From Candidatus Yanofskybacteria bacterium RIFCSPHIGHO2_01_FULL_41_21 (lineage in GTDB: Bacteria > Patescibacteriota > Minisyncoccia > 2-02-FULL-40-12 > GWA2-44-9), in NCBI GenBank assembly GCA_001794025.1, contig MGJA01000008.1:358-64357 (forward strand): DNA of 64,000 nucleotides, given 5' to 3'. Under the pieces are notes generated by a model, which was not told the origin of the DNA, searched no databases, and saw nothing but the letters and a program-made list of their open reading frames with translations. Positions 5,103-17,638 of this stretch are shown piece after piece (position 1 is the first letter of the stretch; every line of letters starts with the position of its first letter). A program made the translations under genes and the position numbers.

Positions 5103-5152
5103 ATAGTTGCCGAAATGGCGATTTTTGTTTACAATATGATGAATAGAGTAAG

Positions 5153-5235
5153 GGGGTGTGGTGGAGTGGTCAATCACAACAGACTGTAAATCTGTCGGCC
5201 GTGTGCCTTCGTAGGTTCGAATCCTACCGCCCCCA
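5153..5235 (+). tRNA. tRNA-Tyr (anticodon GTA), type II long variable arm
   Basis: acceptor gggggtg/cgccccc, anticodon loop ctgtaaa, variable arm cggccgtgtgccttcg, T-loop ttcgaat. Confidence 0.8.
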
Positions 5236-5308
5236 CACGAGTTTTGCCCAAGAGCGAAAAGCGATTGGATACAAAACTCAGTGCCCGCCTCCGGCGGGCC
5301 GAAAAACA

Positions 5309-5581
5309 ATGAGTTACTTTGTTTATGTTTTAAGAAGTAAAAAAGACGGTAAATTGTATACTGGATATTCAGAAGATCCAGAACGTCGTCTCAAGGAACA
5401 TAATGCAGGCAAGACAGTATCTCTATTGAAGCGTAGACCATTGATTATTGTGTATCAAGAGATATACAATAAAGAAATTCAAGCCAAAAGAAGGGAAAGA
5501 TTTTTGAAAACAGGGCAAGGAAGAAAATTTTTGCAGACCGCGTTGAAACTTGCGGTTGTTCAAGATTTTCGCAAGAATTAG
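5309..5581 (+). CDS. GIY-YIG nuclease family protein (YhbQ/UPF0213-like)
   Basis: YFVYVLRSKKDGKLYTGYSEDPERRLKEHN GIY-YIG motif; upstream part of the 5156 ORF overlaps tRNA-Tyr and is discarded. Confidence 0.8.
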   Translation: MSYFVYVLRSKKDGKLYTGYSEDPERRLKEHNAGKTVSLLKRRPLIIVYQEIYNKEIQAKRRERFLKTGQGRKFLQTALKLAVVQDFRKN

Positions 5582-6498: not shown

Positions 6499-6695
6499 AA
6501 ATTTAGTGGTTTTATTTTTAGGGTTCTTGGTTGATATACATTACTACTTTTAATAGATAATATCTTTAAATTTTTATAGAAGATATTTATTTTAAATCTA
6601 TCAACCTTTTATAAAGATAGCATACCTTTATACCCTGTAAATACGTAATGTTGATAAGTAAATCAAAAATCCAGATTTTTAAAGTAAAATCTGGA

Positions 6696-6735
6696 TTTTT
6701 AGGAATTAGGAATTAGGAATTAGGAATTAGGACCC
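6696..6735. repeat. tandem heptamer (ttaggaa)x5
   Basis: taggaattaggaattaggaattaggaattagga; a related tandem sits inside the giant CDS at 7340..7375. Confidence 0.8.
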
Positions 6736-7031
6736 GAAGTTATCCACTTTTTTTGGATACCCGATGGTACAATTTAACTAGATTTAAAGCCAAGATTTAT
6801 ATCTATCCGATATCATATCGGATAAGTGGAAAAAAGTTTAAAAAAGGAATGAACGTCTGAACGTCAGTTGAGTGAAAAAACATCCCGCCCTTCTTGGCGA
6901 AGGGCGGGAAGGAATGCACGCCTTGGCCCCGTCGGAAAACGAAGCCCATGGCCCATTAATTGTACAACGAAATAAAAGTGCAAGCAATTGAAAATTGCTT
7001 ATAAAATCTCAATCCTAATTCCTGTTTTTTT

Positions 7032-10000
7032 ATGTCCGATTATCAGCCCAAAAAATTACCTTCTCAATGGATCTCAATTCAAGAGGCGACGCGTCACGCA
7101 CCGTACTCGCAAGAGTATTTAAGTTTATTGGCGCGACGGGGAAAAATATTTGCTAAAAAAATTGGGCGGAATTGGTATACAACTCATGAAGCGTTAGAAC
7201 GTTATATTTCAGAGCAGACCCTTCTTTCACCGATAGCCAAACAATTCAGTCCTACCGTGGAACTTGCTTCGTCTTCCTCAAATTTAGTGGAAGAATTTAA
7301 ACGTCTTAATCCTCAAGTATTTGGGCAAGAAAAAAAGCAGGAATTAGGAATTAGGAATCAGGAATTAGGAAATACAAAACAAGGGATTGAATCGGTGCCA
7401 TCAGTACTTCCTAATGTTGCGCCAGCTCCGGTTACAATACCAACACCTACTATCCCTGTAATTCCGCAAAATAATTCAGAGAATAAAGTTCTTGAAAAAC
7501 TGGATCGATTATCTGATTCGTTGGAAACGTTTACTTCAAGTGTGACCGCATCAATTCCGGCTATAACCCAAGCGAATCAATCAGCGCCATTAAACCCCGA
7601 GGTTGAAGAATTTGTTCAGGAACGAATAAATTCTTCCATTCATAGATTCCGACATTTTGATCGTTTTGCAAAATCAACAACCCGATCTCCTGTCCGTTTA
7701 ATGGCCGTTATGATTACGGCTGTAGTGTTAATCTTTGTTCTTATCGGCGGGTTCAGTTTTGGAAAAGTAGATGCCGTTGCTCAAAAAATTAAAAAGGCCT
7801 TCAACGATGCCACCACGATTGATGGCCATTTTGCCGGGACGCATGCCAATGAGGTCTTAATTCTGGATAAGGCCGGCAATATTTCAATTTACGGCCATAT
7901 TGAAACCGAAGGTCAGTTTCGGAGCCATGCGCCGGAGGGCGTGGCGCCGATTGTGGTGGATTCGTTGACTAAAGTTGAAAATCTTAATGCTGATTACATT
8001 GATAATCTTAGTTCCCAGGACTTTACCCTCGCCTTCGTTACTAAAAATGGGAACCTAACCTATGAAGATGTCCATCTGATGGGTGATGTTGAAGTGGGAA
8101 AACTTCTTAAAGTCGGCGGGGATGCGATTATTGGGAAGACCCTAACCGTGTCCGGCGCCACCAAGCTAATGGACTCGTTAACTGTTTATGGCAAACTCGG
8201 AGTTCTTTCGGATGCGGTTTTCGGAAAAGATGTCACTCTCACCAATGGTGATCTCGTCATAAGCAAAGGCACCATTAAGATTTCTAATATGACTTTGATT
8301 AAAAATCTTAATGCCGAATATTTGGACGGTGTTAAAAAAGGAGACATCAATCTCAACTTTGTCACTTCAAACGGAAATACGACTTCAAACTCAATTACAG
8401 TTGGGGGTCTCACCTCAACCGGAACCATAACTTCTTACGGTCCGGGATTTTTTAATTCAAGTATCTGGAGTCCTTTCGGTTCTTTTGGTGATTTAGGTGT
8501 CGGAAAGAGCGCCAGTTTTGGCGACTCAAAAAATCCGAGTAATTCAAAATTTGAGGTCTATTCCAGTAAGTTTTCTCTTGATGCGAACGGTAATGCTCGA
8601 TTGGCCGGCACGACCACTACTAATAATTTATTAGTCAGTGGCAGTGTTTTATCGGGACTTATTCCTTCGGGATCATTTGATTTGGGCTCACTAGCACAAC
8701 CGTGGGTAAATCTTTATGCAATTGACGGAAATTTCTCCGGTGATATTACGGTCTCCGGCAGTTTAAATTTTGCCGGCACGACATCAAGTTCTTTTGTTAT
8801 CAATACCGATAATACCGCTTCTGATTCTGAAGATGCTTACTTAGCGTTTAGTCGCGGTTCAATAACTCCGGATGCGAAACTGACATGGAATTCCACTTTT
8901 AAACAATTTGAATTTAATGAACCAGTTAATATTGCCAGTAGTTCTTTCACGGTTGAAGGGAATACTTTTTTGAATAACGCTTCAGTTTCTAATAATTTTG
9001 AAGTTGTTGGCACCGCCTCTATCTCCGGTACCACCACCCTCGCCGGTCAAACCTACACCTGGCCTTCTTCCCAAACAACTAACGGTTTCCTTAAAACAAA
9101 CGGTACCGGCACTTTATCCTGGTCAACCGCTTTCTCCGGTACCATCGCTTCCTTATCTCAAAACTTTGACCCTGCCACCGACAATCAATACGACCTTGGC
9201 GACCCAAGCTACCGCTGGCGAACCGGTTACTTTGGGACCAGTATCATCTCTCCCTTTGCTTCTTTCACCAATGCCAGTGTTTCCAATAACTTTGAGATAG
9301 GTAACATTGCCAGTATCGGAGGAAATGCCACCATCGGCGGTACCCTTGGTGTAACCGGAAACACCACCCTCACAGGTACCCTAACTGGTAATTCAATTGG
9401 TTCCAACTCTTTTCAAGGTAGTTTAGATGTTGCCCTTGGTCTCCACGCTGTTGGTAACGTTACCACCCTTGCCCAATTCCTTTCTTCCGGAACAGGCAGT
9501 AACTCTTTTGCGGGCAGTTTAGATATCACCAAAGGTCTTCGGGCTGCCCAAATCACCGGTACCGGCCTTACCCTAAACGGAAATACCAATATCTCCGGTA
9601 CTCTCAATGTTATTGGTCAATCAAACTTCTCTAACGCTTCCGCTTCATCCGGATTTGAATCAACCTACCTGAAAACGGATACAATCTCTAATTCCACGGG
9701 CACCCTAACCATCAACGCTTTTACCCTTGGCGGATTAGTCACCGGCAACAATCAATCCATTACAGGATTAAATCAACTCACTTCATCTATCGCCAGTATC
9801 TCTACTAACTTTGAAGTCGGTGGTTATGCTTCAATCGGAGGAAACACCACCCTTGCGGGTCAAACATACACCTGGCCTTCCTCTCAAACAACCAACGGTT
9901 TTCTAAAAACAAACGGTTCTGGCACTTTATCCTGGTCAACCGCTTTTGCCGGTACCATAGCTTCCTTATCCCAAAACTTTGACCCCGCCACCGACAATCA

Positions 10001-13000
10001 ATACGACCTTGGCGACCCAAGCTACCGCTGGCGAACCGGTTATTTCGGGACCTCGCTAGGCATCAACAACGGCGGAACATTAAACACCGCCTTTGAAGTC
10101 GGAGGAACTGCTTCTATATCTAATACCTTAACTCTTGGCGGTATTATTACTTCCACAAATACCGGTTCCAACTCTTTCGCTGGAAGCATTGAACTTACTA
10201 AGGGCTTCCGATTCGGTAATCTTACTCAAACCGGAACAGGGATTAATTACTTTGCCGGCAACGTCGGTATTGGGACGAATTCACCGACCTCTCTCTTTAC
10301 TGTCCAAGGTCGGGGAGAATTCCAAGGCACGGCAAGCGCTTCCTATTTCCTAACCGGCAATACGATTCAAGTCGGTGGTTTCTCATCGGCCAGTTATAAC
10401 CGATTCGGGACCGGTACCACCAACCATGCTAATTATATTTCCACTTCTAATGATGTTCTCGTTTCCGGGGATTTGGAAATTTTGGGGACAGCTTCATTTG
10501 AAGGTAATGTCGTTATCGGCGCTACGAGTACAACCACTTTAGCCGTCGGTTCTACAGTCAAAAGCGACCTTATTCCGTTCACCAATGCCTACAATCTTGG
10601 TTCCACTACCAATCATTGGGGGACGCTATATGTTGATACCGCCAATATTACGACTCTAGAAGCATCAACAGCATCTATTTCCGGCACTACCGCTCGGGAT
10701 TTCCTAATTAATTCTGACAATGCTTCGGCGGATGCTGAAGATATGTCCGTCACATTTAAACGAGGTCTGCCTACGGTTAATGCCGCGCTTGAGTGGGATT
10801 CAACCAACAAGCGTTTTAATTTGAATTTTCCGATTTTCGTTCAGACCGTAGATAATCCGGAACCAAGCTATAATTTTACCCAGCTTGTCCTTAAAGGTGC
10901 CGCGGACCAGAGTTCAAATGATTATTTCCAAATTAAAGATTCTTCCGATGTTTCTAAGTTTCGGATAAGCGACAATGGCGCTTCATTTTCGGTTCCGTTT
11001 GAGCTTTCAAATACCGCTTCCATTTCCAACACTCTTACTCTCGGCGGTATCATTACTTCCACAAATACCGGTTCCAACAGTTTCTCGGGCGGTCTGGAAG
11101 TAACCAAAGGCATCCATGCCACGGGTTCAATCACTTCCGGCGGTGATTTAAGAATCAACGGCAACGCTAATCTTAACGGGGTCTTTGTTTTTGGTGACAA
11201 CGGCGATGTCGGGTCAATTAATACTAATGATTGGGACATTGCCATCGACGGCGCCTTAACCGGAATATCTTTTAACGCTAATGGGACCGGTAACTCAATA
11301 TCCAATATTGATAATGGTGACTTAACCGCCGATACTTTGGACTTCACCGCTATTTCCGACAGTCCCACCCTTGACGCTGACCTCTATATTCAAAGAGCCG
11401 GTTTCAAGATTGGTATCGGTAAGACCCCTTCTACCGTCTTTGAAGTCCAAGGCACGGCTTCCGCTTCCTACGGTCTCTTTGGTACCCTCCAAATCGGTGC
11501 CTTCTCATCAACAAGTTACAACAGATTCGGCACCACCACCACCGGTCACTCACTCTCCGCAAGTAATGACCTCTTAATATCCGGAGACCTGGAAGTAGAT
11601 GGTTCTGCATACTTTGATGGAAGCACAATCTTCGGTGCCGGTGCCTCCATTTCCGGTAACTTTGACCCCGCCACCGATAATACATATGACTTAGGGGATG
11701 CAAGTTATCGCTGGCAGACAGGTTATTTCGGAACATCATTGGGTATCAACAATGGAGGTACCCTTGACACCGCCTTTGAAGTCGGTGGCACGGCCTCTAT
11801 CTCTAACACCTTAACCCTCGGCGGTATTATTACTTCCACAAATACCGGTTCTAATTCTTTCTCGGGAAGTATCAATTTAGATAAAGGCCTCCATACTACC
11901 GGTAACGTTACCACCTTAGCCCAATTCCTTTCTTCCGGTACAGGCAGTAACAGTTTTGCTGGCAGTTTAAACATCTCCAAATCATTAACGGCGACCAATA
12001 GTGTTACAGCTGGCAGTTTTGTTACCGCCGGTAATCTCACTGTGGGTGGCAATGAGGTCTTAACGGGGACTTTCACTGGCAACTCTACCGGTTCCAACTC
12101 TTTCGCCGGTTCACTGGATATCATCAAAGGTCTTCGTTCCGCCAACTTCACTCAAGTCGGTTCCGCCCCAAACTACTTTAATGGCAACGTCGGCATCGGG
12201 ACGACGGCGCCAAATATCACGGCTTATGCCGGTCGTGTCTTGACCGTTGGTTCAGGCACGAGTGCGGAACCCGCCATCGAGATTTACGGAGGCAGAACTG
12301 GCTCGGATGGTATAGCAGCGGACATGGCTTTTTTAAACAGTTATGCTACTGGTGCCGATAAACGTATTGCATTGATTCGAGCAAACCGTATTACAGACGA
12401 CAATTCTGGGGGTCTTCAATTTTATTCAAGAAATGCGGGAACATTGGTAGAAGCGTTGCGAATAGATAAAACTGGCAACGTCGGCATCGGGACGACGGGG
12501 CCGGGGAATAAGCTCTCATTTGGCGCGAATAACTCGGCTCAGATTATCTCGTTGTATGAAAGTGGAAATACTAAGGTCACTATTGGTACGAATGACGGAT
12601 TTACATTTGCTGTTCCAAACACAAGTAACAATAATTTTAAATTTGGTACACTTTCCACAGCAGATGGAACAACTTTTTCGGAAAAAGTGAGAATTGATAA
12701 TAGCGGCAACGTCGGCATCGGGACGACGGGGCCTAGTGAATTATTGGAAGTGTCAAAAAGTACGGCAAGTGGAAATACTTTTATTCGTATTACAAATACT
12801 GACACCAGTGCTGATGGTGGTGAAGGGGCCGCTTTGGCATTGTATGAGGCAGGAACTCTTCGAACTCAATTCACTTCGAATTTTCAGGATCAGAAGATGT
12901 ATTTATATCATCGTGGGGACAACAGGGTCACGATAGATAATGTCGGCAACGTCGGCATCGGGACGACGGTACCAGGGCAAGCTTTAGAAGTTGGAGGCAC

Positions 13001-13712
13001 GGGCAAGGTAAAAATCGCCGCTTTGACCACCCAGGGCTATGTCTGCGTGGGTGGCAACCCCGGAGCCGGAGTCCTTTCCGATGGGGGAGCATCGTGTTCC
13101 ACTTCCGATGCCAGATTAAAAATAGACATTACCCCCATCTCGGATTCTCTGAATGTGCTTTCATCCCTGAATCAACTTCACGGAGTTTATTATCGTTGGG
13201 ATTTAAATAATCCAAGAAATGAAGGTATGCCTTCCAGCCGTCAAATCGGTATGATCGCCCAGGATGTGGAACAGGTGTTGCCGGAACTGGTATCTGTCGG
13301 CTCTGACGGCTATCGTTCTTTAGATTACCCCAAATTCACCGGTTTCCTGTTGGAAGCGGTCAAAGAGCTTGATAACAAAACAAACGCTTTGACAGGGCAA
13401 TTTGAGGCATTTACAAGCAAATTAGAGGCCCAATGCGTGACCGGAGATACGAGATTGCGCCGTAGGCGCAAGCGAGCCCGTCCCGATGCCGACGTTGAAG
13501 GCGAATTTGATTTTGATGAAGTTGAAATAAAAGATATTGTTGCAGGCGACGAAATCCAGTCGCTGAATGAGGCCACCGGCCGGGTGGAATTCGCTCGCGT
13601 GAACGCGCTTATGGACATGGGCGTCCAAGAGGTGTATGAATTGGTTACCAAGTCGGGGAGGAAGATTCGGACCACCAAAAATCATCCATATCTGGTAAAA
13701 CTGGGGTCATAA
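7032..13712 (+). CDS. giant tail-fibre-like surface protein: N-terminal HTH, TM helix, GNVGIGTT-type beta-repeats, C-terminal peptidase S74 intramolecular-chaperone domain, then N-terminal half of a split mini-intein
   Basis: HTH (WISIQEATRH...GRNWYT); TM LMAVMITAVVLIFVLIGGF; SDARLK...YYRWD...GMIAQDVEQVLPELV ICA motif; CVTGDT...TKNHPYLV Hint blocks A and B. Confidence 0.85.
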   Translation: MSDYQPKKLPSQWISIQEATRHAPYSQEYLSLLARRGKIFAKKIGRNWYTTHEALERYISEQTLLSPIAKQFSPTVELASSSSNLVEEFKRLNPQVFGQEKKQELGIRNQELGNTKQGIESVPSVLPNVAPAPVTIPTPTIPVIPQNNSENKVLEKLDRLSDSLETFTSSVTASIPAITQANQSAPLNPEVEEFVQERINSSIHRFRHFDRFAKSTTRSPVRLMAVMITAVVLIFVLIGGFSFGKVDAVAQKIKKAFNDATTIDGHFAGTHANEVLILDKAGNISIYGHIETEGQFRSHAPEGVAPIVVDSLTKVENLNADYIDNLSSQDFTLAFVTKNGNLTYEDVHLMGDVEVGKLLKVGGDAIIGKTLTVSGATKLMDSLTVYGKLGVLSDAVFGKDVTLTNGDLVISKGTIKISNMTLIKNLNAEYLDGVKKGDINLNFVTSNGNTTSNSITVGGLTSTGTITSYGPGFFNSSIWSPFGSFGDLGVGKSASFGDSKNPSNSKFEVYSSKFSLDANGNARLAGTTTTNNLLVSGSVLSGLIPSGSFDLGSLAQPWVNLYAIDGNFSGDITVSGSLNFAGTTSSSFVINTDNTASDSEDAYLAFSRGSITPDAKLTWNSTFKQFEFNEPVNIASSSFTVEGNTFLNNASVSNNFEVVGTASISGTTTLAGQTYTWPSSQTTNGFLKTNGTGTLSWSTAFSGTIASLSQNFDPATDNQYDLGDPSYRWRTGYFGTSIISPFASFTNASVSNNFEIGNIASIGGNATIGGTLGVTGNTTLTGTLTGNSIGSNSFQGSLDVALGLHAVGNVTTLAQFLSSGTGSNSFAGSLDITKGLRAAQITGTGLTLNGNTNISGTLNVIGQSNFSNASASSGFESTYLKTDTISNSTGTLTINAFTLGGLVTGNNQSITGLNQLTSSIASISTNFEVGGYASIGGNTTLAGQTYTWPSSQTTNGFLKTNGSGTLSWSTAFAGTIASLSQNFDPATDNQYDLGDPSYRWRTGYFGTSLGINNGGTLNTAFEVGGTASISNTLTLGGIITSTNTGSNSFAGSIELTKGFRFGNLTQTGTGINYFAGNVGIGTNSPTSLFTVQGRGEFQGTASASYFLTGNTIQVGGFSSASYNRFGTGTTNHANYISTSNDVLVSGDLEILGTASFEGNVVIGATSTTTLAVGSTVKSDLIPFTNAYNLGSTTNHWGTLYVDTANITTLEASTASISGTTARDFLINSDNASADAEDMSVTFKRGLPTVNAALEWDSTNKRFNLNFPIFVQTVDNPEPSYNFTQLVLKGAADQSSNDYFQIKDSSDVSKFRISDNGASFSVPFELSNTASISNTLTLGGIITSTNTGSNSFSGGLEVTKGIHATGSITSGGDLRINGNANLNGVFVFGDNGDVGSINTNDWDIAIDGALTGISFNANGTGNSISNIDNGDLTADTLDFTAISDSPTLDADLYIQRAGFKIGIGKTPSTVFEVQGTASASYGLFGTLQIGAFSSTSYNRFGTTTTGHSLSASNDLLISGDLEVDGSAYFDGSTIFGAGASISGNFDPATDNTYDLGDASYRWQTGYFGTSLGINNGGTLDTAFEVGGTASISNTLTLGGIITSTNTGSNSFSGSINLDKGLHTTGNVTTLAQFLSSGTGSNSFAGSLNISKSLTATNSVTAGSFVTAGNLTVGGNEVLTGTFTGNSTGSNSFAGSLDIIKGLRSANFTQVGSAPNYFNGNVGIGTTAPNITAYAGRVLTVGSGTSAEPAIEIYGGRTGSDGIAADMAFLNSYATGADKRIALIRANRITDDNSGGLQFYSRNAGTLVEALRIDKTGNVGIGTTGPGNKLSFGANNSAQIISLYESGNTKVTIGTNDGFTFAVPNTSNNNFKFGTLSTADGTTFSEKVRIDNSGNVGIGTTGPSELLEVSKSTASGNTFIRITNTDTSADGGEGAALALYEAGTLRTQFTSNFQDQKMYLYHRGDNRVTIDNVGNVGIGTTVPGQALEVGGTGKVKIAALTTQGYVCVGGNPGAGVLSDGGASCSTSDARLKIDITPISDSLNVLSSLNQLHGVYYRWDLNNPRNEGMPSSRQIGMIAQDVEQVLPELVSVGSDGYRSLDYPKFTGFLLEAVKELDNKTNALTGQFEAFTSKLEAQCVTGDTRLRRRRKRARPDADVEGEFDFDEVEIKDIVAGDEIQSLNEATGRVEFARVNALMDMGVQEVYELVTKSGRKIRTTKNHPYLVKLGS

Positions 13713-13840
13713 TTTTCAGTTTTCAATTATCAATTTTCAATGAATTTACAATGAATCAATTCATCAAAAAAATACAAAAAATAAGGGGAAGCTATATCAC
13801 GGATAGCGGGGTAAGTGTCGTTTTTTACGAAACTCGTGAG

Positions 13841-14221
13841 ATGGCGACCCTCCAAAGTCGTGATATAGAAAAGGTCTCTGCGACTCAACGAAGAGGCAAT
13901 GTCGGCACTGGGGAGGCAAGTCGTGATATGAAAATCATAGAAAATCAAAAAGCCCCGAACAATTGGGACTCTTTGAAGTGGACCCGAGGGGGTTTGCACC
14001 CCTTTCATCAGGTGCTAACGCTGATATGTTACTTCATACACCACGGGCCCGGATCCACACATTTATTATACAGAAAGATGACCGAAACATCAAAACAAAA
14101 AGAACCCCTTTTGAAAGAGGCCCTTTTTGTAGCACCTGATAATGTCCGCAATGTACGAACTATCAGCGTATACAGTAATTATACTCCTATCCATGAAGGT
14201 GTCAAGTGGATATGTGGATAA
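13841..14221 (+). CDS. hypothetical protein (first gene of intein-inserted module); start uncertain (track start 13751)
   Basis: ORF with RRGNVGTGE segment encoded by the shared GC-rich repeat; overlapping minus-strand ORF makes it uncertain. Confidence 0.35.
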   Translation: MATLQSRDIEKVSATQRRGNVGTGEASRDMKIIENQKAPNNWDSLKWTRGGLHPFHQVLTLICYFIHHGPGSTHLLYRKMTETSKQKEPLLKEALFVAPDNVRNVRTISVYSNYTPIHEGVKWICG

Positions 14222-14237
14222 TCAAAGATAATCAAAC

Positions 14238-15443
14238 ATGAATATATTCAATAAAATTAAGAAAATGATACGTCCCGCTGTCTCTGCTTCTCAACAAAAA
14301 GGCAATGTCGGCAGCGGGGCGGTCAATATTGGCGAAAGCAAAATCGCCGATTTTTGCCCCTACTGCAATTCCAAGGACTTCATGAAGCGAGGAATGCGAA
14401 AAAAGAAATTGGAACTGGTCCAGTTGTATTTGTGCCGAAATTGCAAACGGACATTTACTGCCCAGTTTATCAAAGGCAAGCATTATCCGACCAAGCTGAT
14501 TATTGACGCTATCAGTATTTACAATTTGGGGTATGGGTTGGAAGAGACATGTCGACTTATAAACCAGCGTTATGGCGTTAATCCCGGCGCAGCCACTTTA
14601 AATGGATGGTATGTGGAATATGCGCCCTTGTGCCGATATTCGCGGTTGCGTCAATTCGGGATGAAAATGTTTAAACCGGAAAATGTTGTGGAAGAAGTAA
14701 CTATGGCGCATCGGCAGTTGTACCGATATAGATTTCATCGGGCGAAAATGGAACTGGTCTTGCAGGATTTTAAGCACCACCGCTTTGAATCACTGAAGCA
14801 TTATCTGGAAGCGGTGGCGAGCGAGACACCGCACCAGTATTTTCAGGAAGGCGGGCGGATGTCGGAAGTCAAGACAAAATTTAATAAAGCCCAGATGATT
14901 GTCCGTTCAAAAAAGAATTACGCCAACCGGCTGGCGGAGTTTGTTTTGCAAGCCGTCAAGGATAATAAACAGCGCCACGAGGCCTTGCAAAAATTTATGC
15001 TCGCCAACGATTCGGTGACCGTGGCGACCGAGGTGCCGGTCTATATAAGAAGAGAAGATATCGGTCACATGGAAAATGATTTGGGATTTGAAGTGCTCAA
15101 TGAGGGCGAGGAAATACCAAGGTTGCTGACTGGACATATTGATTTAATCCAGGTGCGCAATGGGCAGGTTCATATACTTGATTTTAAGCCAAATGCAGCT
15201 AAAGAGAAACCAATTGAACAACTAACCTGGTACGCGCTGGCTTTGTCCCGCCTGACCGGTTTGCGATTATATGAATTTAAATGCGCCTGGTTTGACGGCA
15301 AAGATTATTTTGAATTTTATCCCTTGCACGTCGTCAAAAAAATTACCCACCGCTTGAAGAATAAAAAGGTATTTTTGAAGAGTCGCGGAACGTCAATTGA
15401 AATTCCAAATGAGGACTTAGGCAGAAAAGTAAAAGTGGTCTAG
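14238..15443 (+). CDS. Zn-ribbon + HTH (InsA-like) N-terminus fused to PD-(D/E)xK-like nuclease domain
   Basis: CPYCNSK...CRNCKRTF zinc ribbon; C-terminal GHIDLIQVRNGQVHILDFKP resembles D..(D/E)xK nuclease core. Confidence 0.65.
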   Translation: MNIFNKIKKMIRPAVSASQQKGNVGSGAVNIGESKIADFCPYCNSKDFMKRGMRKKKLELVQLYLCRNCKRTFTAQFIKGKHYPTKLIIDAISIYNLGYGLEETCRLINQRYGVNPGAATLNGWYVEYAPLCRYSRLRQFGMKMFKPENVVEEVTMAHRQLYRYRFHRAKMELVLQDFKHHRFESLKHYLEAVASETPHQYFQEGGRMSEVKTKFNKAQMIVRSKKNYANRLAEFVLQAVKDNKQRHEALQKFMLANDSVTVATEVPVYIRREDIGHMENDLGFEVLNEGEEIPRLLTGHIDLIQVRNGQVHILDFKPNAAKEKPIEQLTWYALALSRLTGLRLYEFKCAWFDGKDYFEFYPLHVVKKITHRLKNKKVFLKSRGTSIEIPNEDLGRKVKVV

Positions 15444-15476
15444 ATAAATTTTCAATAAAAATTGTAAATTATTATA

Positions 15477-16049
15477 ATGACCTATACTACATTTAAAAAA
15501 TATGCGCCAAAAAAGCCCGTGCATAAGTTCACGGATTTAGAAGTTTATCAGCAGACACTGGCCTTGTCGGTGATTATTATGAAGGACTTAAAACCTAAAC
15601 TGATAATACTTGAGTACCCGTTTTTGGAGAATTTAACAAATGGCGCGATTTCATTGCCACTATGGATTGCCGAAGCTCATTCAGTAAGGTTCGGAGACCA
15701 TGCCGTCGGCTTGGGTTTATTGGAAAAAGTCATGTCTGGCTGTAATAAAATGGTGGTATACTTAGAGCAAGCCAAAGGAATTTATCGCCCCGCTGCCGAG
15801 GTTGCCTCTTCGTTGAGAAGCAGAGACCTGTCCCAAGTGGGACAAAGTGACGACCAAAGGTCGGCAACAAACAAAATCGGCACCGGGGCCCTCGACCCGG
15901 ACCTGATAGACGATTTAATTAAACGTTATCATGACGTTCGGACCAAAGTTTTTCGTCTAAGCAAATCGTGGCAAAAGTGGTACGATGTCCCGCTGCCGAA
16001 ATTGCCTTCTATTGAAAAGCGGGAACAGCGGGACAAAATAAATATATGA
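15477..16049 (+). CDS. four-helix-bundle protein (23S rRNA intervening-sequence protein / DGR Avd family)
   Basis: KFTDLEVYQQTLAL...LPLWIAEAHSVRFGDHAVGLGLLEKVMSGCNKMVVYLEQAK matches 4HB family pattern; ATGA overlap with next gene. Confidence 0.7.
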   Translation: MTYTTFKKYAPKKPVHKFTDLEVYQQTLALSVIIMKDLKPKLIILEYPFLENLTNGAISLPLWIAEAHSVRFGDHAVGLGLLEKVMSGCNKMVVYLEQAKGIYRPAAEVASSLRSRDLSQVGQSDDQRSATNKIGTGALDPDLIDDLIKRYHDVRTKVFRLSKSWQKWYDVPLPKLPSIEKREQRDKINI

Positions 16050-17638
16050 AAAAGATAAATAATAATAAAATATCGGCATCGGGACGCTCAAAGAGCGGCA
16101 TGAGCAATCTCGGCACCGGGACGTGGACAAAAGTATCGGAATTAAGACCGGGTATGAAAATTGCCGTGCCGAAAAATGAAATCGGCATCGGGACAGACGA
16201 TGTATTGTGGGACGAAATTGTCGCAGTTAATCATATCGGCCGGGAACGGGTCTATGATATTGAAGTGGAAGGCACTCATAATTTTATTGGTAATGATATT
16301 TTCGCTCATAATACTTACATCAATAACGATTTAATAAATATTTCGGCGATTAATCTTGAAGTCGGAGATATTGTTCGGCCCGCCTCGGGTTCCCAAAGGT
16401 TCGTCGTTGCCACTCCGGCTGATGAAAATCAAGTTGCAGGCATTGTTACCGCTACGCCGGCCACTTCAGATAGCGTCTCAACTTCAATCGCTTTTTCGGG
16501 ACAGGCCATAGTAAAGGTCTCGGCGGAAAATGGCGCGATTAAAGTCGGTGATCGGCTGGCCTTAAGCGATAACCAGCCTGGTGTGGCCATAAAAGCCACC
16601 ACGGCCGGCATGACTATCGGTATCGCAATGGAAGACGCAATAGTAGATAGGGTTTTAACTCTTGTTAATGTCGGATATTGGGTGCCGAGTGTGGCGACTG
16701 TTACTGGAACAACTGCCAGTGGTTCGGGAACGGTTACGGTCTCTTCAAGCGGTTCACCGACTGATGTGTTGGCGACATTGGCGAATGCGGTCATGACTCG
16801 TGTTCAGTCAATTTGGGCATCGGGAGATATCATCAAAGAAGGCATAAGCAAAACGTATTTTGCAATTTCCAATTTACAATTATCAATTTCCAATTTTGGA
16901 ACCTCAATCTCTGAAGCAATTAGTAATTGGGGGACCAGAGATATTACTATTGCCAATACGGCGGATGATGCGACCAAGGCATTATTTACGGGCAATTCGG
17001 CGCAAGCGTCTGACCAGTCCAAAGTTGATTTAGCCGAGAATAATGAATATCTGACGACTTATGGCGTGGATTCAACAAGAGGGGAGATTCAACTTTCCGG
17101 TTCGTCGCAAATCGTCGCTGGCGAAGCCAGGGTTTATTTTGACTATTCTTTCTCCTCAATTATTTCCGACAAAGCGCCGATTAGAGTAATCGTAACCCCA
17201 ACCTCAATGATGCAAGGGCAGCTTTACACTGATTCCAAGTCACAATACGGTTTCGTAATTAAAGAATTGAATGCCCAAGATAACGGAACATTTGACTGGC
17301 TGGTGATTGCAAGACGAAAAGGTTTTGATACAGACATAATTTCCACCCCGACCCCGGATTCGACAAGCTCACCACAAGCAACACCGGCCACTGCTCCATC
17401 AACTGACCCTACCCCCACCCCGACTCCTGACGTAGCACCAACATCGGATGTTACTCCTACCCCAACCCCAACCCCTGATGCAGCACCAGTTACTGATGCA
17501 ACACCTGCGCCTACCCCAGAACCAACCCCAGATATAACTCCAGTTCCTGATACTACTCCGACACCTGTCCCAGACGCTACACCAGAACCGACACCATCAT
17601 CAATAACACCCGAAAGTACACCTACCCCAACCCCATAA
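16046..17638 (+). CDS. protein starting with C-terminal half of split mini-intein (16046..16312) followed by C-extein with beta-rich domain and Pro/Thr-rich tail
   Basis: WTKVSELRPGMKIAV...VYDIEVEGTHNFIGNDIFAHN then +1 Thr; PT-rich low-complexity C-terminus. Confidence 0.8.
   Translation: MKKINNNKISASGRSKSGMSNLGTGTWTKVSELRPGMKIAVPKNEIGIGTDDVLWDEIVAVNHIGRERVYDIEVEGTHNFIGNDIFAHNTYINNDLINISAINLEVGDIVRPASGSQRFVVATPADENQVAGIVTATPATSDSVSTSIAFSGQAIVKVSAENGAIKVGDRLALSDNQPGVAIKATTAGMTIGIAMEDAIVDRVLTLVNVGYWVPSVATVTGTTASGSGTVTVSSSGSPTDVLATLANAVMTRVQSIWASGDIIKEGISKTYFAISNLQLSISNFGTSISEAISNWGTRDITIANTADDATKALFTGNSAQASDQSKVDLAENNEYLTTYGVDSTRGEIQLSGSSQIVAGEARVYFDYSFSSIISDKAPIRVIVTPTSMMQGQLYTDSKSQYGFVIKELNAQDNGTFDWLVIARRKGFDTDIISTPTPDSTSSPQATPATAPSTDPTPTPTPDVAPTSDVTPTPTPTPDAAPVTDATPAPTPEPTPDITPVPDTTPTPVPDATPEPTPSSITPESTPTPTP

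Follow-up and report, generated by a model that had tools for sequence, protein, structure and literature searches.

A 25-nt coding core of frozen spelling in a modular surface-fibre gene of a probable CPR bacterium, a candidate junction for module shuffling

The window analysed here (the whole stretch of 64,000 nucleotides) carries a gene for a modular surface fibre in which an exact 25-mer, GGCAACGTCGGCATCGGGACGACGG, occurs four times on the + strand (Table 1), each time in frame with the ORF at 7032-13712 and translated as GNVGIGTT. This core marks a distinct canonical class of fibre genes, occurring in CPR bacteria, DPANN archaea, other bacteria and viruses, in which its spelling is frozen at all eight wobble positions, and its conservation exceeds what selection on the protein alone gives. 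The reading that we consider probable is that the core is a frozen junction element and a crossover point at which fibre modules are duplicated, deleted and replaced. A literature search with the peptide GNVGIGTT or with the core nucleotide string gave no papers, and no earlier description was found of a nucleotide-frozen coding 24-mer extending over two cellular domains and viruses.

Table 1. Features of the fibre gene and the adjoining region (positions in the window)
Feature	Position	Strand	Remarks
MAT/tail-fibre-like surface protein gene, 2226 aa	7032..13712	+	Pfam; PDB matches
Decayed junction GNVGIGTN, GGCAACGTCGGTATTGGGACGAAT	10257..10280	+	two synonymous differences from core
Core copy 1, canonical junction	12183..12207	+	exact 25-mer; GNVGIGTT; opens 97-aa module
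Core copy 2, canonical junction	12474..12498	+	exact 25-mer
Core copy 3, canonical junction	12705..12729	+	exact 25-mer
Core copy 4, canonical junction	12945..12969	+	exact 25-mer; last one ahead of S74 domain
Intein N-fragment, CVTGDT ... TKNHPYLV	13434..13709	+	Pfam Intein_splicing profile positions 9-71; aligned with 12 related inteins
Inverted exact 19-nt core copy	13479..13497	-	encodes RPDADVE on + strand; inside the intein's variable basic/acidic loop
tRNA-Leu(tag), between intein halves	13978..14050	-	ARAGORN; Rfam 38.6 bits
IS1/IS1595-type zinc-binding domain + PD-(D/E)XK (Cas4/AddA-like) nuclease, free-standing within split intein	14238..15443	+	Pfam PDDEXK_1; NCBIfam
Half hairpin element with core-like copy GGCAATGTCGGCAGCGGGGCGG, nuclease 5' end	14280..14327	+	second half-copy 13872-13913
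Partner ORF, weak four-helix-bundle/23S-rRNA-IVP relative	15477..16049	+	homologues always follow nuclease
Hairpin element, ~105 nt, core-like arms; in-frame translation AAEVASSLRSRDLSQVGQSDDQRSATNKIGTG	15786..15890		DNA fold -24.9 kcal/mol, z=-2.95
ORF: intein C-fragment (aa 1-89), then C-extein	16046..17638	+	Pfam Intein_splicing profile positions 114-155

One spelling within the gene and across genomes

At the protein level the gene appears to encode a MAT-type, S74-terminated fibre, and it lies on a chromosome with ribosomal genes. The layout runs from an N-terminal HTH_17-like segment and a TM segment, through repeated beta-helix modules, to a Peptidase_S74 domain (PF13884, E=2.1e-14, aa 2025-2087, nt 13104-13292), beyond which the N-terminal half of a split intein follows. 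The modules match the MAT fibres of Bdellovibrio (8OND, bd2133, E=2.8e-11, the match running across the motif; 8OJN, 1e-5; 8OML, 8e-4), and the S74 region matches the tail fibres 6F45 and 8JOV; the cleavage-site sequence SDARLK, a putative site for autoproteolytic release of the chaperone, is also present. GNVGIGTT corresponds to the capping-loop motif with which each beta-helix module begins. The ORF has (G)NVGIGT(T/N)xPxxxL five times, and the fifth GNVGIGT site, at 10257, uses other wobble bases (GGT ATT).

The first-pass annotation had reported four identical 25-nt cores in otherwise diverged surroundings, and had taken this as a sign of selection or homogenisation at the level of DNA. All four cores are indeed exact, none being expected from 100 dinucleotide shuffles, although the starts it assigned (12178, 12474, 12706 and 12942) were off by 0-5 nt. 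The divergence of the surroundings is equally clear: for any pair of cores in the window, identity runs beyond the core by no more than 1 base on the left and 4 on the right, the flanks are 0.20-0.53 identical over 45-90 nt (about random in five of the six pairs), and the repeat units around them share 28-33% protein identity. An extension of identity over whole units, which the first-pass annotation had named as the mark of a very recent duplication, is thus not seen. Given the codon usage of the ORF, in which GGG and ACG are minority choices at 15% of their synonymous codons each, the chance of a single canonical spelling is 6e-6.

The wider comparison strongly supports the same claim of constraint on the DNA. 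GNVGIGTT can be spelled in 24,576 ways, one of which is the canonical core. Metagenome contigs scanned without bias, by a degenerate pattern, gave 198 GNVGIGTT sites, of which 27 (13.6%) had this one spelling, where ~0.24% is expected from per-position frequencies; it was present in 12 of 120 loci, at GC contents of 0.34-0.66, and the runner-up spelling reached 3.5%. Scans with a degenerate pattern therefore rule out an abundance artefact, in which any spelling of a common motif would be found. Mismatches to the core were bimodal (27 sites with 0, 16 with 2 and 37 with 7), and exact cores clustered by gene. A degenerate scan of viral contigs also returned the canonical spelling as the commonest, and phage fibre genes are for the most part free in their spelling, with 206 spellings over 246 sites. 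The exact core was found in at least 120 genome contigs (65 CPR, 16 archaeal and 39 from other bacteria, some MAG labels possibly being due to mis-binning) and in at least 120 viral contigs (GC 0.29-0.65); two Bdellovibrionales MAGs (L035 and L061) carry it, and core-bearing contigs as a whole range from 29% to 66% GC. Cultured phages and E. coli genomes gave no exact copy, so that those collections offer no immediately tractable model.

The limits of the frozen tract are sharp. Over 333 unique sites the wobbles flanking the core carry ~0.1 bit, and the eighth codon of the core is ACG in 86%; three codons downstream, at +27, an invariant Pro codon carries 0.17 bit at its wobble. The reading frame is always that of GNVGIGT, and consecutive copies keep phase with each other in 226 of 231 cases. 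What the conserved core delimits is variable, since its flanks are random and just 46 pairs among the 419 core-bounded modules reach 40% aa identity.

Breakpoints at the core

Core-bearing loci have almost no DNA in common at 85% identity or more, which made a between-locus BLAST breakpoint test unhelpful, and a within-locus test of HSP ends was confounded by the extension of BLAST through islands of identity. It was replaced by a direct flank comparison, which took those pairs of cores whose flanks matched on one side at 75-80% identity or more and compared the other side. All the comparison data are metagenome assemblies, mostly short-read, which could hide long block duplications or, in rare cases, make chimeric joins. 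In the first sample identity on that other side did not exceed 45-50% in any of 25 pairs, and in an independent viral sample all 20 pairs broke at the core. Combined, the samples give 45 pairs from 15 loci; in all 45 similarity ends at the core, to within 8 nt, and none is similar on both sides, which argues that the core is a recombination junction for module shuffling; the proposal of a recombination site made in the first-pass annotation gains its support from this comparison, in which the ends of the similar segments coincide with the core. Identity continues for 0-2 nt beyond the core edge in 36 of the 45 pairs, the similar tracts being 70-590 nt long, and at a control point 60 nt upstream of the core the ratio is reversed (18 continuous, 1 break). 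The same left module is joined at the core to different right modules in one locus (L012), and related modules have unrelated downstream neighbours in 16 of 18 cases.

Three observations bound this reading. Non-canonical GNVGIGT sites also break (5-6 breaks against 1-3 pass-throughs), and the effect may therefore partly reflect selection for intact modules rather than for exact DNA. Exchange of modules between genomes is barely detectable except in duplicate viral contigs, and essentially no near-identical modules common to different phyla were seen; the sameness of the spelling across domains is therefore not directly explained by it. In the window, none of the six core pairs has a recently shared flank and no recent exchange is visible, so that the junction role proposed for these copies is extrapolated from relatives.

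Perfect identity over 24-25 nt would allow general homologous recombination, whether of the cell or of a phage, to pair unrelated modules in register and in frame. The exchange may depend on RecA or else on a single-strand-annealing protein of phage origin, given a length of homology near the minimum for efficiency, and the freezing itself may represent a frequency-dependent conservation like that of transposon ends. As recombination needs identical junctions, a variant junction would be without a partner and would drop from the birth-and-death process of modules. No enzyme has so far been tied to the core, and we infer both the enzyme involved and the cause of freezing across domains.

These considerations give a handle on fibre diversification in episymbionts (CPR, DPANN), in predators (Bdellovibrionales, Omnitrophota) and in their viruses, in all of which attachment to other cells is at issue. 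They bear on the minimal homology able to sustain a long-lived recombination system and, given a linked nuclease, on whether fibre diversification is programmed. In practical terms, the 24-mer could be used as a probe or primer site for capturing fibre-module diversity in metagenomes, and as a natural seam for engineered chimeric receptor-binding proteins.

The adjoining nuclease, intein and hairpin element

A split intein appears to fracture the fibre gene, and between its halves lie a tRNA gene, a nuclease gene and a partner ORF; this arrangement is the context of the core finding and not the finding itself. The N-fragment, which closes the upstream ORF, has its Cys1 at 13434-13436 and a block B (TxxH), and the C-fragment, with which the downstream ORF starts, ends in FAHN|T (AHN at 16310-16312, +1 Thr). 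Four other loci (L040, L104, L258 and L363) have the same layout of intein halves with the nuclease between. Over 6-19 kb, Rfam returned nothing but tRNAs above threshold. The zinc domain of the nuclease scores 34.1 bits against a cutoff of 28 (NCBIfam NF050000), and its catalytic motifs look intact, GHID..LDFK..QLTWY being conserved in 10 homologues; an exact-protein look-up of the window's nuclease gave no record. The partner ORF, for whose L377 copy a PF05635 match is weak (E=7e-4), has 190 aa here against 137-141 aa in relatives and holds an in-frame insertion of the hairpin element.

A broader form of the junction reading, tentative and taken as a whole unlikely, makes the core a universal in-frame adaptor for adhesin modules, identical over CPR, DPANN, predatory and other bacteria, phages and possibly giant viruses, and thereby the basis of a pan-domain module pool; in CPR and DPANN the downstream transposase-derived nuclease, here nested in the split intein, would have been recruited to start exchanges, as a prokaryotic counterpart of HO-driven cassette switching.

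Alternatively, in line with the nuclease or recombinase target named as a candidate role in the first-pass annotation, the core could be the recognition or cleavage site of this nuclease, with the zinc finger as its DNA-binding head; its breaks would drive gene conversion of modules, as HO does in yeast mating-type switching, and would keep the spelling uniform. We think this unlikely, despite the apparently intact catalytic motifs and the above-cutoff zinc domain. Among 120 loci chosen by the exact 25-mer alone the nuclease is present in 13 and the partner in 9, against none of either in 120 viral loci from the degenerate scan with equal S74 counts, and in the unbiased metagenome sample all three nuclease matches fall in loci with cores at no more than 2 mismatches. 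The order and strand of fibre with cores, nuclease and partner recur in ~20 loci (Saccharibacteria, Gracilibacteria, Daviesbacteria, Azambacteria and DPANN MAGs among them), although several seemingly independent nuclease contexts are one syntenic orthologous locus, and the nuclease pair is also found apart from fibre genes (L361, L374). Where loci were chosen by the nuclease (L369, L377), their GNVGIGT sites are nearly all canonical. Core-like motifs, TCGGCANCGGG (~0.02 expected per 10 kb), lie in or beside the nuclease module even where there is no fibre gene (L361, L367), and seven lie within the module of the window; yet L380, the closest relative, encodes the nuclease and shows no copy of the motif over 3.1 kb. 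In strongly shuffled loci, L012 for example, the 8-kb block lacks the nuclease, and the persistence of four intact targets next to an active nuclease would call for some control. As a necessary partner of the core the nuclease is ruled out, since neither it nor the partner ORF occurs in any of 120 viral canonical loci, despite their identical spelling and the 20:0 pattern of breaks.

Quite improbable, in our judgement, is selection of the exact spelling in translation or in the mRNA, through a codon series that paces the ribosome while the capping loop of the trimeric beta-helix folds or through a small mRNA or DNA hairpin, with breakpoints that just follow domain boundaries. The core is always coding, in one frame and at one structural position, the capping loop; breaks at non-canonical sites agree with such a view, and the 25-mer can form a hairpin (-6.3 kcal/mol, z=-3.0). 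Against it, the codons are identical from the lowest to the highest GC contents despite very different codon usage and include the little-used GGG and ACG of the ORF, the adjacent invariant Pro is free at its wobble, and most phage fibre genes do without a fixed spelling. Covariation of the putative stem pairs (wobbles 6-24 and 9-21) is no higher than that of control pairs, and a hairpin constraint on the core is accordingly rejected.

It is very doubtful that the core is the footprint of a mobile intein, which would have homed beside GNVGIGTT and spread its donor's spelling by co-conversion of the flanking extein. Some 12 independent inteins do lie exactly 11 codons after GNVGIGTT (GNVGIGTTxPxxKLHVEG[QH]|C[VL]TGD), several being followed by TY[IL]xGNVGIGTT; an exact core stands on either side of the intein in L040 and L104, and in L011 three intein copies have in common the core and 33 nt, similarity ending at the 5' edge of the core. 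However, the 33 nt from core to insertion point, though closer to the intein, vary freely at their wobbles between loci, right-hand cores are mostly inexact, only ~15 of the 120 genome loci and a single one of the 120 viral canonical loci contain an intein, and the window's own intein does not adjoin a core. Very recent duplication of the four copies and chance codon bias are together next to impossible, in view of the flank and unit identities, the low probability per spelling and the empty shuffles given above.

Two kinds of core-related sequence in this region were missed by the first-pass annotation: the inverted exact 19-mer and eight degenerate copies within 13893-16195. The inverted copy, found in this window alone among ~370 sites, is an arm of a lineage-specific in-frame hairpin element. 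It is missing from the orthologous intein of L364, and its context, TTCAAC..GGGACGrGC, recurs in an insertion of the L378 nuclease. The element is confined to close relatives, and in L380 it sits in the nuclease N-terminus. Three core-like patches in the first 50 codons of the ORF that encodes the intein C-fragment (16064-16086, 16101-16123 and 16173-16195) are absent in L380.

Comparison with known systems

The region differs from the established devices for diversifying fibres. The first-pass annotation had suggested a search for a cognate recombinase; no site-specific recombinase domain was found in window ORFs of at least 120 aa, and a shufflon or invertible tail-fibre segment of the Rci or Gin/Cin type is excluded by this and by the inverted copy being unique to the window. 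No inverted repeats bracketing alternative C-terminal segments were seen, the inverted copy being a hairpin-element arm, and inversion through the 19-mer would add only 19 codons before a stop (ORF 13422-13685), truncating the protein. A diversity-generating retroelement is likewise excluded: the window has no RT and no TR/VR pair, its repeats share only the 25-mer, and the partner ORF is only a weak four-helix-bundle relative.

The hairpin element invites comparison, for the inverted 19-mer only, with the Rickettsia palindromic elements, reviewed with other in-frame MITEs in PMC10969869. By analogy, the ~105-nt element too lies in frame in ORFs, is dispersed and sits in different genes in close relatives; its arms, in contrast, are near-copies of the fibre junction core, which has no counterpart in those elements. 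The intein arrangement resembles the fractured genes described by Dassa et al. (2009, PMC2677866), where split inteins have a free-standing homing endonuclease between their halves. The layout is the same, with IntN and IntC around a nuclease gene at the canonical endonuclease-insertion point of the intein, whereas the hosts there are conserved, mainly phage, enzymes of DNA synthesis and repair and the endonuclease is Vsr-like. Here the host is a chromosomal bacterial surface fibre, the nuclease combines an IS1 zinc finger with PDDEXK_1 and has a partner ORF, and a tRNA gene lies inside as well.

At the protein level, the S74 chaperone domain is common to the window protein, the MAT fibres of Bdellovibrio and the S74 tail fibres and endosialidases, and GNVGIGTTxPxxKL agrees with the capping-loop consensus of MAT fibres, V-G-G/N-pi-x-x-P-x-x-x-L (Caulton et al. 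2024, PMC10769870). That paper covers the structure and mosaic domain content of MAT proteins and mentions neither conservation at the nucleotide level nor a recombination mechanism (the word "nucleotide" occurs 0 times). The present fibre gene differs from those described there in its host, a probable CPR bacterium, and in the split intein at its end.

That conserved motifs serve as crossover points in phage adhesin genes is already known. Botstein's "linker" idea reportedly holds that short conserved sequences flank the shuffled modules of phages. In the PeSL cassettes of T4-type phages (PMC2839356), short conserved DNA at module boundaries is a substrate for homologous exchange; such linkers are intergenic and lineage-specific, whereas the core is intragenic, coding, only 24-25 nt long and common to domains of life. 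The nearest precedent on record comes from the T4 gp38 adhesins, where exchange takes place in conserved motifs or close to them (PMC3157838), a pattern found here in all 45 informative pairs, each from loci other than the window. The logic of the gp38 glycine-rich motifs (GRMs; Tetart et al. 1996/1998; Trojet et al. 2011, PMC3157838) is the same, conserved linkers permitting in-frame shuffling of specificity segments, and the likeness is one of analogy and not of membership, as the architectures differ. The GRMs are conserved in one phage superfamily and delimit loops, whereas the core has one nucleotide spelling in bacteria, archaea and viruses across the whole GC range and bounds entire beta-helix modules of ~40-190 aa.

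The exact core in a fibre gene

The 25-mer GGCAACGTCGGCATCGGGACGACGG occurs four times on the plus strand, each copy in frame within a single ORF of 2226 aa and each encoding GNVGIGTT, where shuffled sequence would be expected to yield none. The first-pass annotation had described four identical cores in diverged repeats, and this was borne out, at positions 0-5 nt from those it gave: matching bases continue beyond the core edges for at most one position to the left and four to the right, the copies have 20-53% identity over flanks of 45-90 nt, and at protein level identity among the repeat units is 28-33%. Identity stops at the core, in contrast to what recent duplication of whole units would leave, and comparison of the flanks indicated no recent exchange among the window's own four units. 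Given the codon usage of the ORF itself, in which GGG and ACG each represent 15% of their respective synonymous codons, the probability of one canonical spelling (the exact nucleotide version) is 6e-6; a fifth GNVGIGT site is spelled with GGT ATT.

The window is bacterial chromosome, with genes for ribosomal proteins, RF, EF-Ts, dcw functions and DnaK/J, and Patescibacteria account for all of its syntenic relatives and nuclease homologues, which makes the source a probable CPR bacterium. The fibre ORF comprises an HTH_17-like N-terminus, a transmembrane segment, long repeats, a Peptidase_S74 domain (E=2e-14) and, at its extreme end, the N-part of an intein. Its repeat modules match the Bdellovibrio "mosaic adhesive trimer" (MAT) fibre structure 8OND (E=2.8e-11) in alignments that cross the motif, which in the MAT family forms "capping loops" at the edges of trimeric beta-helices, with the consensus V-G-G/N-pi-x-x-P-x-x-x-L (PMC10769870). 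On these grounds the predicted protein is of a known fibre kind, with GNVGIGTT opening every predicted beta-helix module. A cytoplasmic DNA-binding-like head of excisionase type (aa 13-62), followed by the transmembrane segment, is unusual on a surface fibre; comparison loci L072 and L377 have similar N-termini. The upstream part of the gene contains large internal duplications (71-87% identity) of a repeat type unlike the GNVGIGTT modules. Tandem arrays of the heptamer AGGAATT, encoding QELGIRNQELG inside the gene and with an inverted partial copy directly before the start codon, may represent either a regulatory repeat or a tract prone to slippage. Elsewhere in the window, tRNA-Tyr, one of four clustered tRNA genes, is overlapped by a GIY-YIG nuclease-domain ORF that is a possible free-standing homing endonuclease. 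The release-factor ORF starts at PCRF profile position 97, probably owing to programmed frameshifting of the prfB type or to truncation of the ORF call.

Features of the window and of related loci
Feature	Position	Remarks
Release-factor ORF	1277-2080	
tRNA-Tyr	5152-5236	
GIY-YIG ORF	5156-5581	
AGGAATT arrays	6687-6732, 7008-7031, 7325-7384	upstream of fibre gene and in its 5' part
Fibre ORF	7032-13712	
HTH_17-like and transmembrane segments	7032-7800	
Duplication pair	8988-9239, 9801-10052	fibre gene
Duplication pair	9950-10209, 11633-11892	fibre gene
Duplication triple	10107-10220, 11013-11126, 11790-11903	fibre gene
Fifth GNVGIGT site	10257	
Exact cores	12183, 12474, 12705, 12945	plus strand
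IntN	end of 7032-13712	Cys1 at 13434; block B TKNHPYLV
Inverted core copy	13479-13497	19 nt
tRNA-Leu(tag)	13978-14050	minus strand; between IntN and IntC
401-aa protein	14238-15443	between intein halves; IS1/IS1595 zinc-binding N-domain (34.1 bits, cutoff 28) and PD-(D/E)XK nuclease domain
IntC	start of 16046-17638	ends …FAHN|T
Hairpin element, full copy	15786-15890	
Hairpin element, other window copies	13872-13913, 14280-14327, 15985-16034	several halves
Hairpin element in relatives	L378 10836-10933; L380 610-707	

Distribution of the canonical spelling

At least 120 contigs of a one-genome-per-species collection carry the exact 25-mer; by record title, where mis-binning may explain some labels, 65 are CPR/Patescibacteria of many classes, 16 archaeal (mostly DPANN) and 39 other, including Elusimicrobia, Omnitrophota, Bdellovibrionales, Planctomycetes, Bacteroidia and Gammaproteobacteria MAGs. 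Two or more exact cores, usually spaced 234-330 nt apart, are present in at least 36 loci. IMG/VR has at least 120 viral contigs (GC 0.29-0.65) with the exact 24-mer, two of them giant-virus MAGs; the exact sequence was absent from the cultured phages and E. coli genomes scanned. As a test for artefact, metagenome and viral contigs were scanned with a fully degenerate back-translation of GNVGIGTT. The canonical spelling accounted for 27 of 198 metagenome sites (13.6%), in 12 of 120 loci of GC 0.34-0.66, whereas the second spelling reached 3.5% and per-position frequencies predicted about 0.24% canonical, an excess that disposes of the notion of a motif so common that every spelling appears. 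Among viral sites it made up 2%, yet ranked first of 206 spellings. The spectrum of mismatches is bimodal (27 sites with none, 16 with two, 37 with seven) and exactness clusters by gene, which together define a "canonical" class of fibre genes.

Over 333 unique sites the core has sharp edges, and its fixed wobbles give way to flanking wobbles of about 0.1 bit, supporting the earlier proposal of conservation at the DNA level; an invariant Pro codon three codons downstream has a free wobble (0.17 bit), which shows that selection on the protein is not by itself enough to fix wobbles at these sites. Nor are the core loci recent copies of one gene: DNA with 85% identity or more is common to just 15 pairs of loci, and the 419 modules bounded by cores include only 46 pairs with at least 40% amino acid identity.

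Breaks in module similarity at the core

Within-locus core pairs from metagenome assemblies, most of these built from short reads, were compared over 45-90 nt on each side, excluding the core itself. One flank was at least 80% identical in 25 of 1305 pairs (9 loci); in each of the 25 the identity of the opposite flank did not exceed 45%, and similarity on both sides was seen in none. A control point 60 nt upstream gave the reverse, 18 continuous pairs vs 1 break. Viral loci, an independent sample, contributed 20 breaks, and the pooled 45 breaks in 15 loci, with no pass-throughs, support the recombination site suggested by the annotation; the search it proposed for a cognate recombinase came up empty, neither a site-specific recombinase nor a reverse transcriptase being encoded in the window. 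In 36 of the 45 pairs the dissimilar side keeps identity for 0-2 nt beyond the edge of the core (maximum 8), and the similar tracts, of 70-590 nt, fall on either side of the core. Comparison locus L012 joins the same left module to different right modules at different cores; in 16 of 18 cases related modules are followed by unrelated ones; and two contigs of a Berkelbacteria MAG have more than 300 nt in common (~90%) right of a core and nothing left of it. Intein copies in L011, sharing the core and 33 nt with similarity stopping at the core's 5' edge, are a further example. Non-canonical GNVGIGT sites also tend toward breaks (5-6 vs 1-3 pass-throughs), several of the pairs sharing near-identical "private" junctions, so part of the signal is a general property of module boundaries; at canonical sites, events are about 3-4 times more numerous per pair, without a single pass-through. 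Sharing of modules between genomes is nearly absent, duplicate viral contigs excepted, and frequent inter-genome exchange is therefore not supported.

Exact, sharply bounded identity marks module starts, with breakpoints of paralogous similarity inside it, and from these comparisons we regard it as fairly probable that the core is a recombination junction for modules. General homologous recombination, through RecA or phage single-strand-annealing proteins, could act on 24-25 nt of identity, a length close to the minimal efficient processing segment of E. coli, reportedly ~23-27 bp; RecR is encoded in the window, and RecA was not found within its 64 kb. Unrelated modules would pair in register, with in-frame duplication, loss or replacement as the outcome. 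A mutated junction would lose its partners and drop out of module birth, and new modules would always arise between canonical junctions, giving a frequency-dependent conservation like that of transposon ends. Such freezing would need only descent, with whole-gene transfer, from a common gene family, and not constant traffic between genomes. Both the freezing mechanism and the enzymes are what we infer, and the freezing argument is the weakest step of the explanation.

Possible selfish elements around the core, and known systems

The nuclease encoded between the intein halves retains intact GHID/LDFK/QLTWY motifs, and its partner ORF (15477-16049), likewise between the halves, is a weak relative of four-helix-bundle/23S-rRNA-IVP proteins. 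In CPR/DPANN the pair is linked to canonical fibre genes, which would be consistent with a core targeted by this nuclease: it is present in 13 of 120 exact-core genome loci (at least 120 exist) but in none of 120 control viral loci whose S74 counts are equal, it follows the fibre gene on that gene's strand in ~20 loci spread over several CPR classes and DPANN MAGs, and L369 and L377, loci found via the nuclease, have almost wholly canonical junctions. However, several of these contexts are a single orthologous syntenic locus, L361 and L374 have the pair but no fibre gene, and it accompanies none of 120 viral canonical loci, though spelling and break pattern are identical there. Because this argues against a necessary role, we retain the nuclease target as an improbable rival; the nuclease could be an add-on of certain lineages or a selfish element favouring the fibre-gene neighbourhood.

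Inteins of one family insert exactly 11 codons past GNVGIGTT (GNVGIGTTxPxxKLHVEG[QH]|C[VL]TGD, ~12 cases), some with TY[IL]xGNVGIGTT on the far side. Intein co-conversion was rejected: few canonical loci have an intein, and the stretch of 33 nt that separates core from intein shows free variation. Inteins appear to take advantage of the boundary between modules and not to be the source of the spelling. Hairpin constraint fails for want of specific covariation in the small hairpin the core could form. Inteins lie at junctions in L010, L011, L040, L054, L057, L072, L075, L104, L258 and L316; the family has contiguous and split members, up to 3-4 copies per gene, and the contiguous ones hold an unannotated insert of ~180 aa with no Pfam match (L003:150-690).

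The fracture in the window spans 13434-16312, a layout repeated in L040, L104, L258 and L363. A split intein 3' of the self-cleaving S74 chaperone domain is an odd arrangement, and trans-splicing onto alternative C-exteins is conceivable. ORF 13751-14221 is probably not a real gene: its first 39 aa correspond to the original nuclease N-terminus (cf. L364 6280-6399 and L380), displaced by an insertion holding tRNA-Leu and a duplicated half hairpin element. Small NYN-domain (L361, L363-L366) or PemK-like toxin ORFs (L367, L369) often adjoin the nuclease pair, as do IS200/IS605 Y1 transposases (Y1_Tnp) in L369 and L378, and the region 3' of the fibre gene is suggestive of a hotspot for mobile or selfish genes.

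The inverted exact 19-nt core copy, which falls within the intein's hypervariable basic/acidic loop, is unique among ~370 sites and absent from the orthologous intein. Its context, TTCAAC·TCGGCATCGGGACG·rGC, matches an insertion in the L378 nuclease and not the fibre gene's own junctions. It is part of a hairpin element of ~105 nt, with arms that are near-copies of the core, reading in frame AAEVASSLRSRDL…QRDDQRSA…NIGTG; the element occupies different genes in close relatives and is found in this clade only. Three additional core-like patches lie at the start of the IntC ORF, and the diagnostic motifs are all missing from the closest relative, L380.

Our literature search found neither the peptide nor the nucleotide string in any paper, and no description of a pan-domain junction that is exact at the nucleotide level and has sharp bounds. 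The pattern of conservation is as surprising as it is widespread, and opens the shuffling of adhesin modules in episymbionts and predators to direct tests. Already known are the MAT/S74 fibre family and its capping-loop motif, conserved-motif-mediated shuffling in phage adhesins (gp38 GRMs; PMC3157838), short conserved linkers beside shuffled modules (PMC2839356) and fractured genes (PMC2677866). The hairpin element resembles the in-frame palindromic elements of Rickettsia (RPE/MITE-like). The split intein and nuclease are laid out as in the "fractured genes" of Dassa et al. (PMC2677866), but the host gene and the type of nuclease are different.
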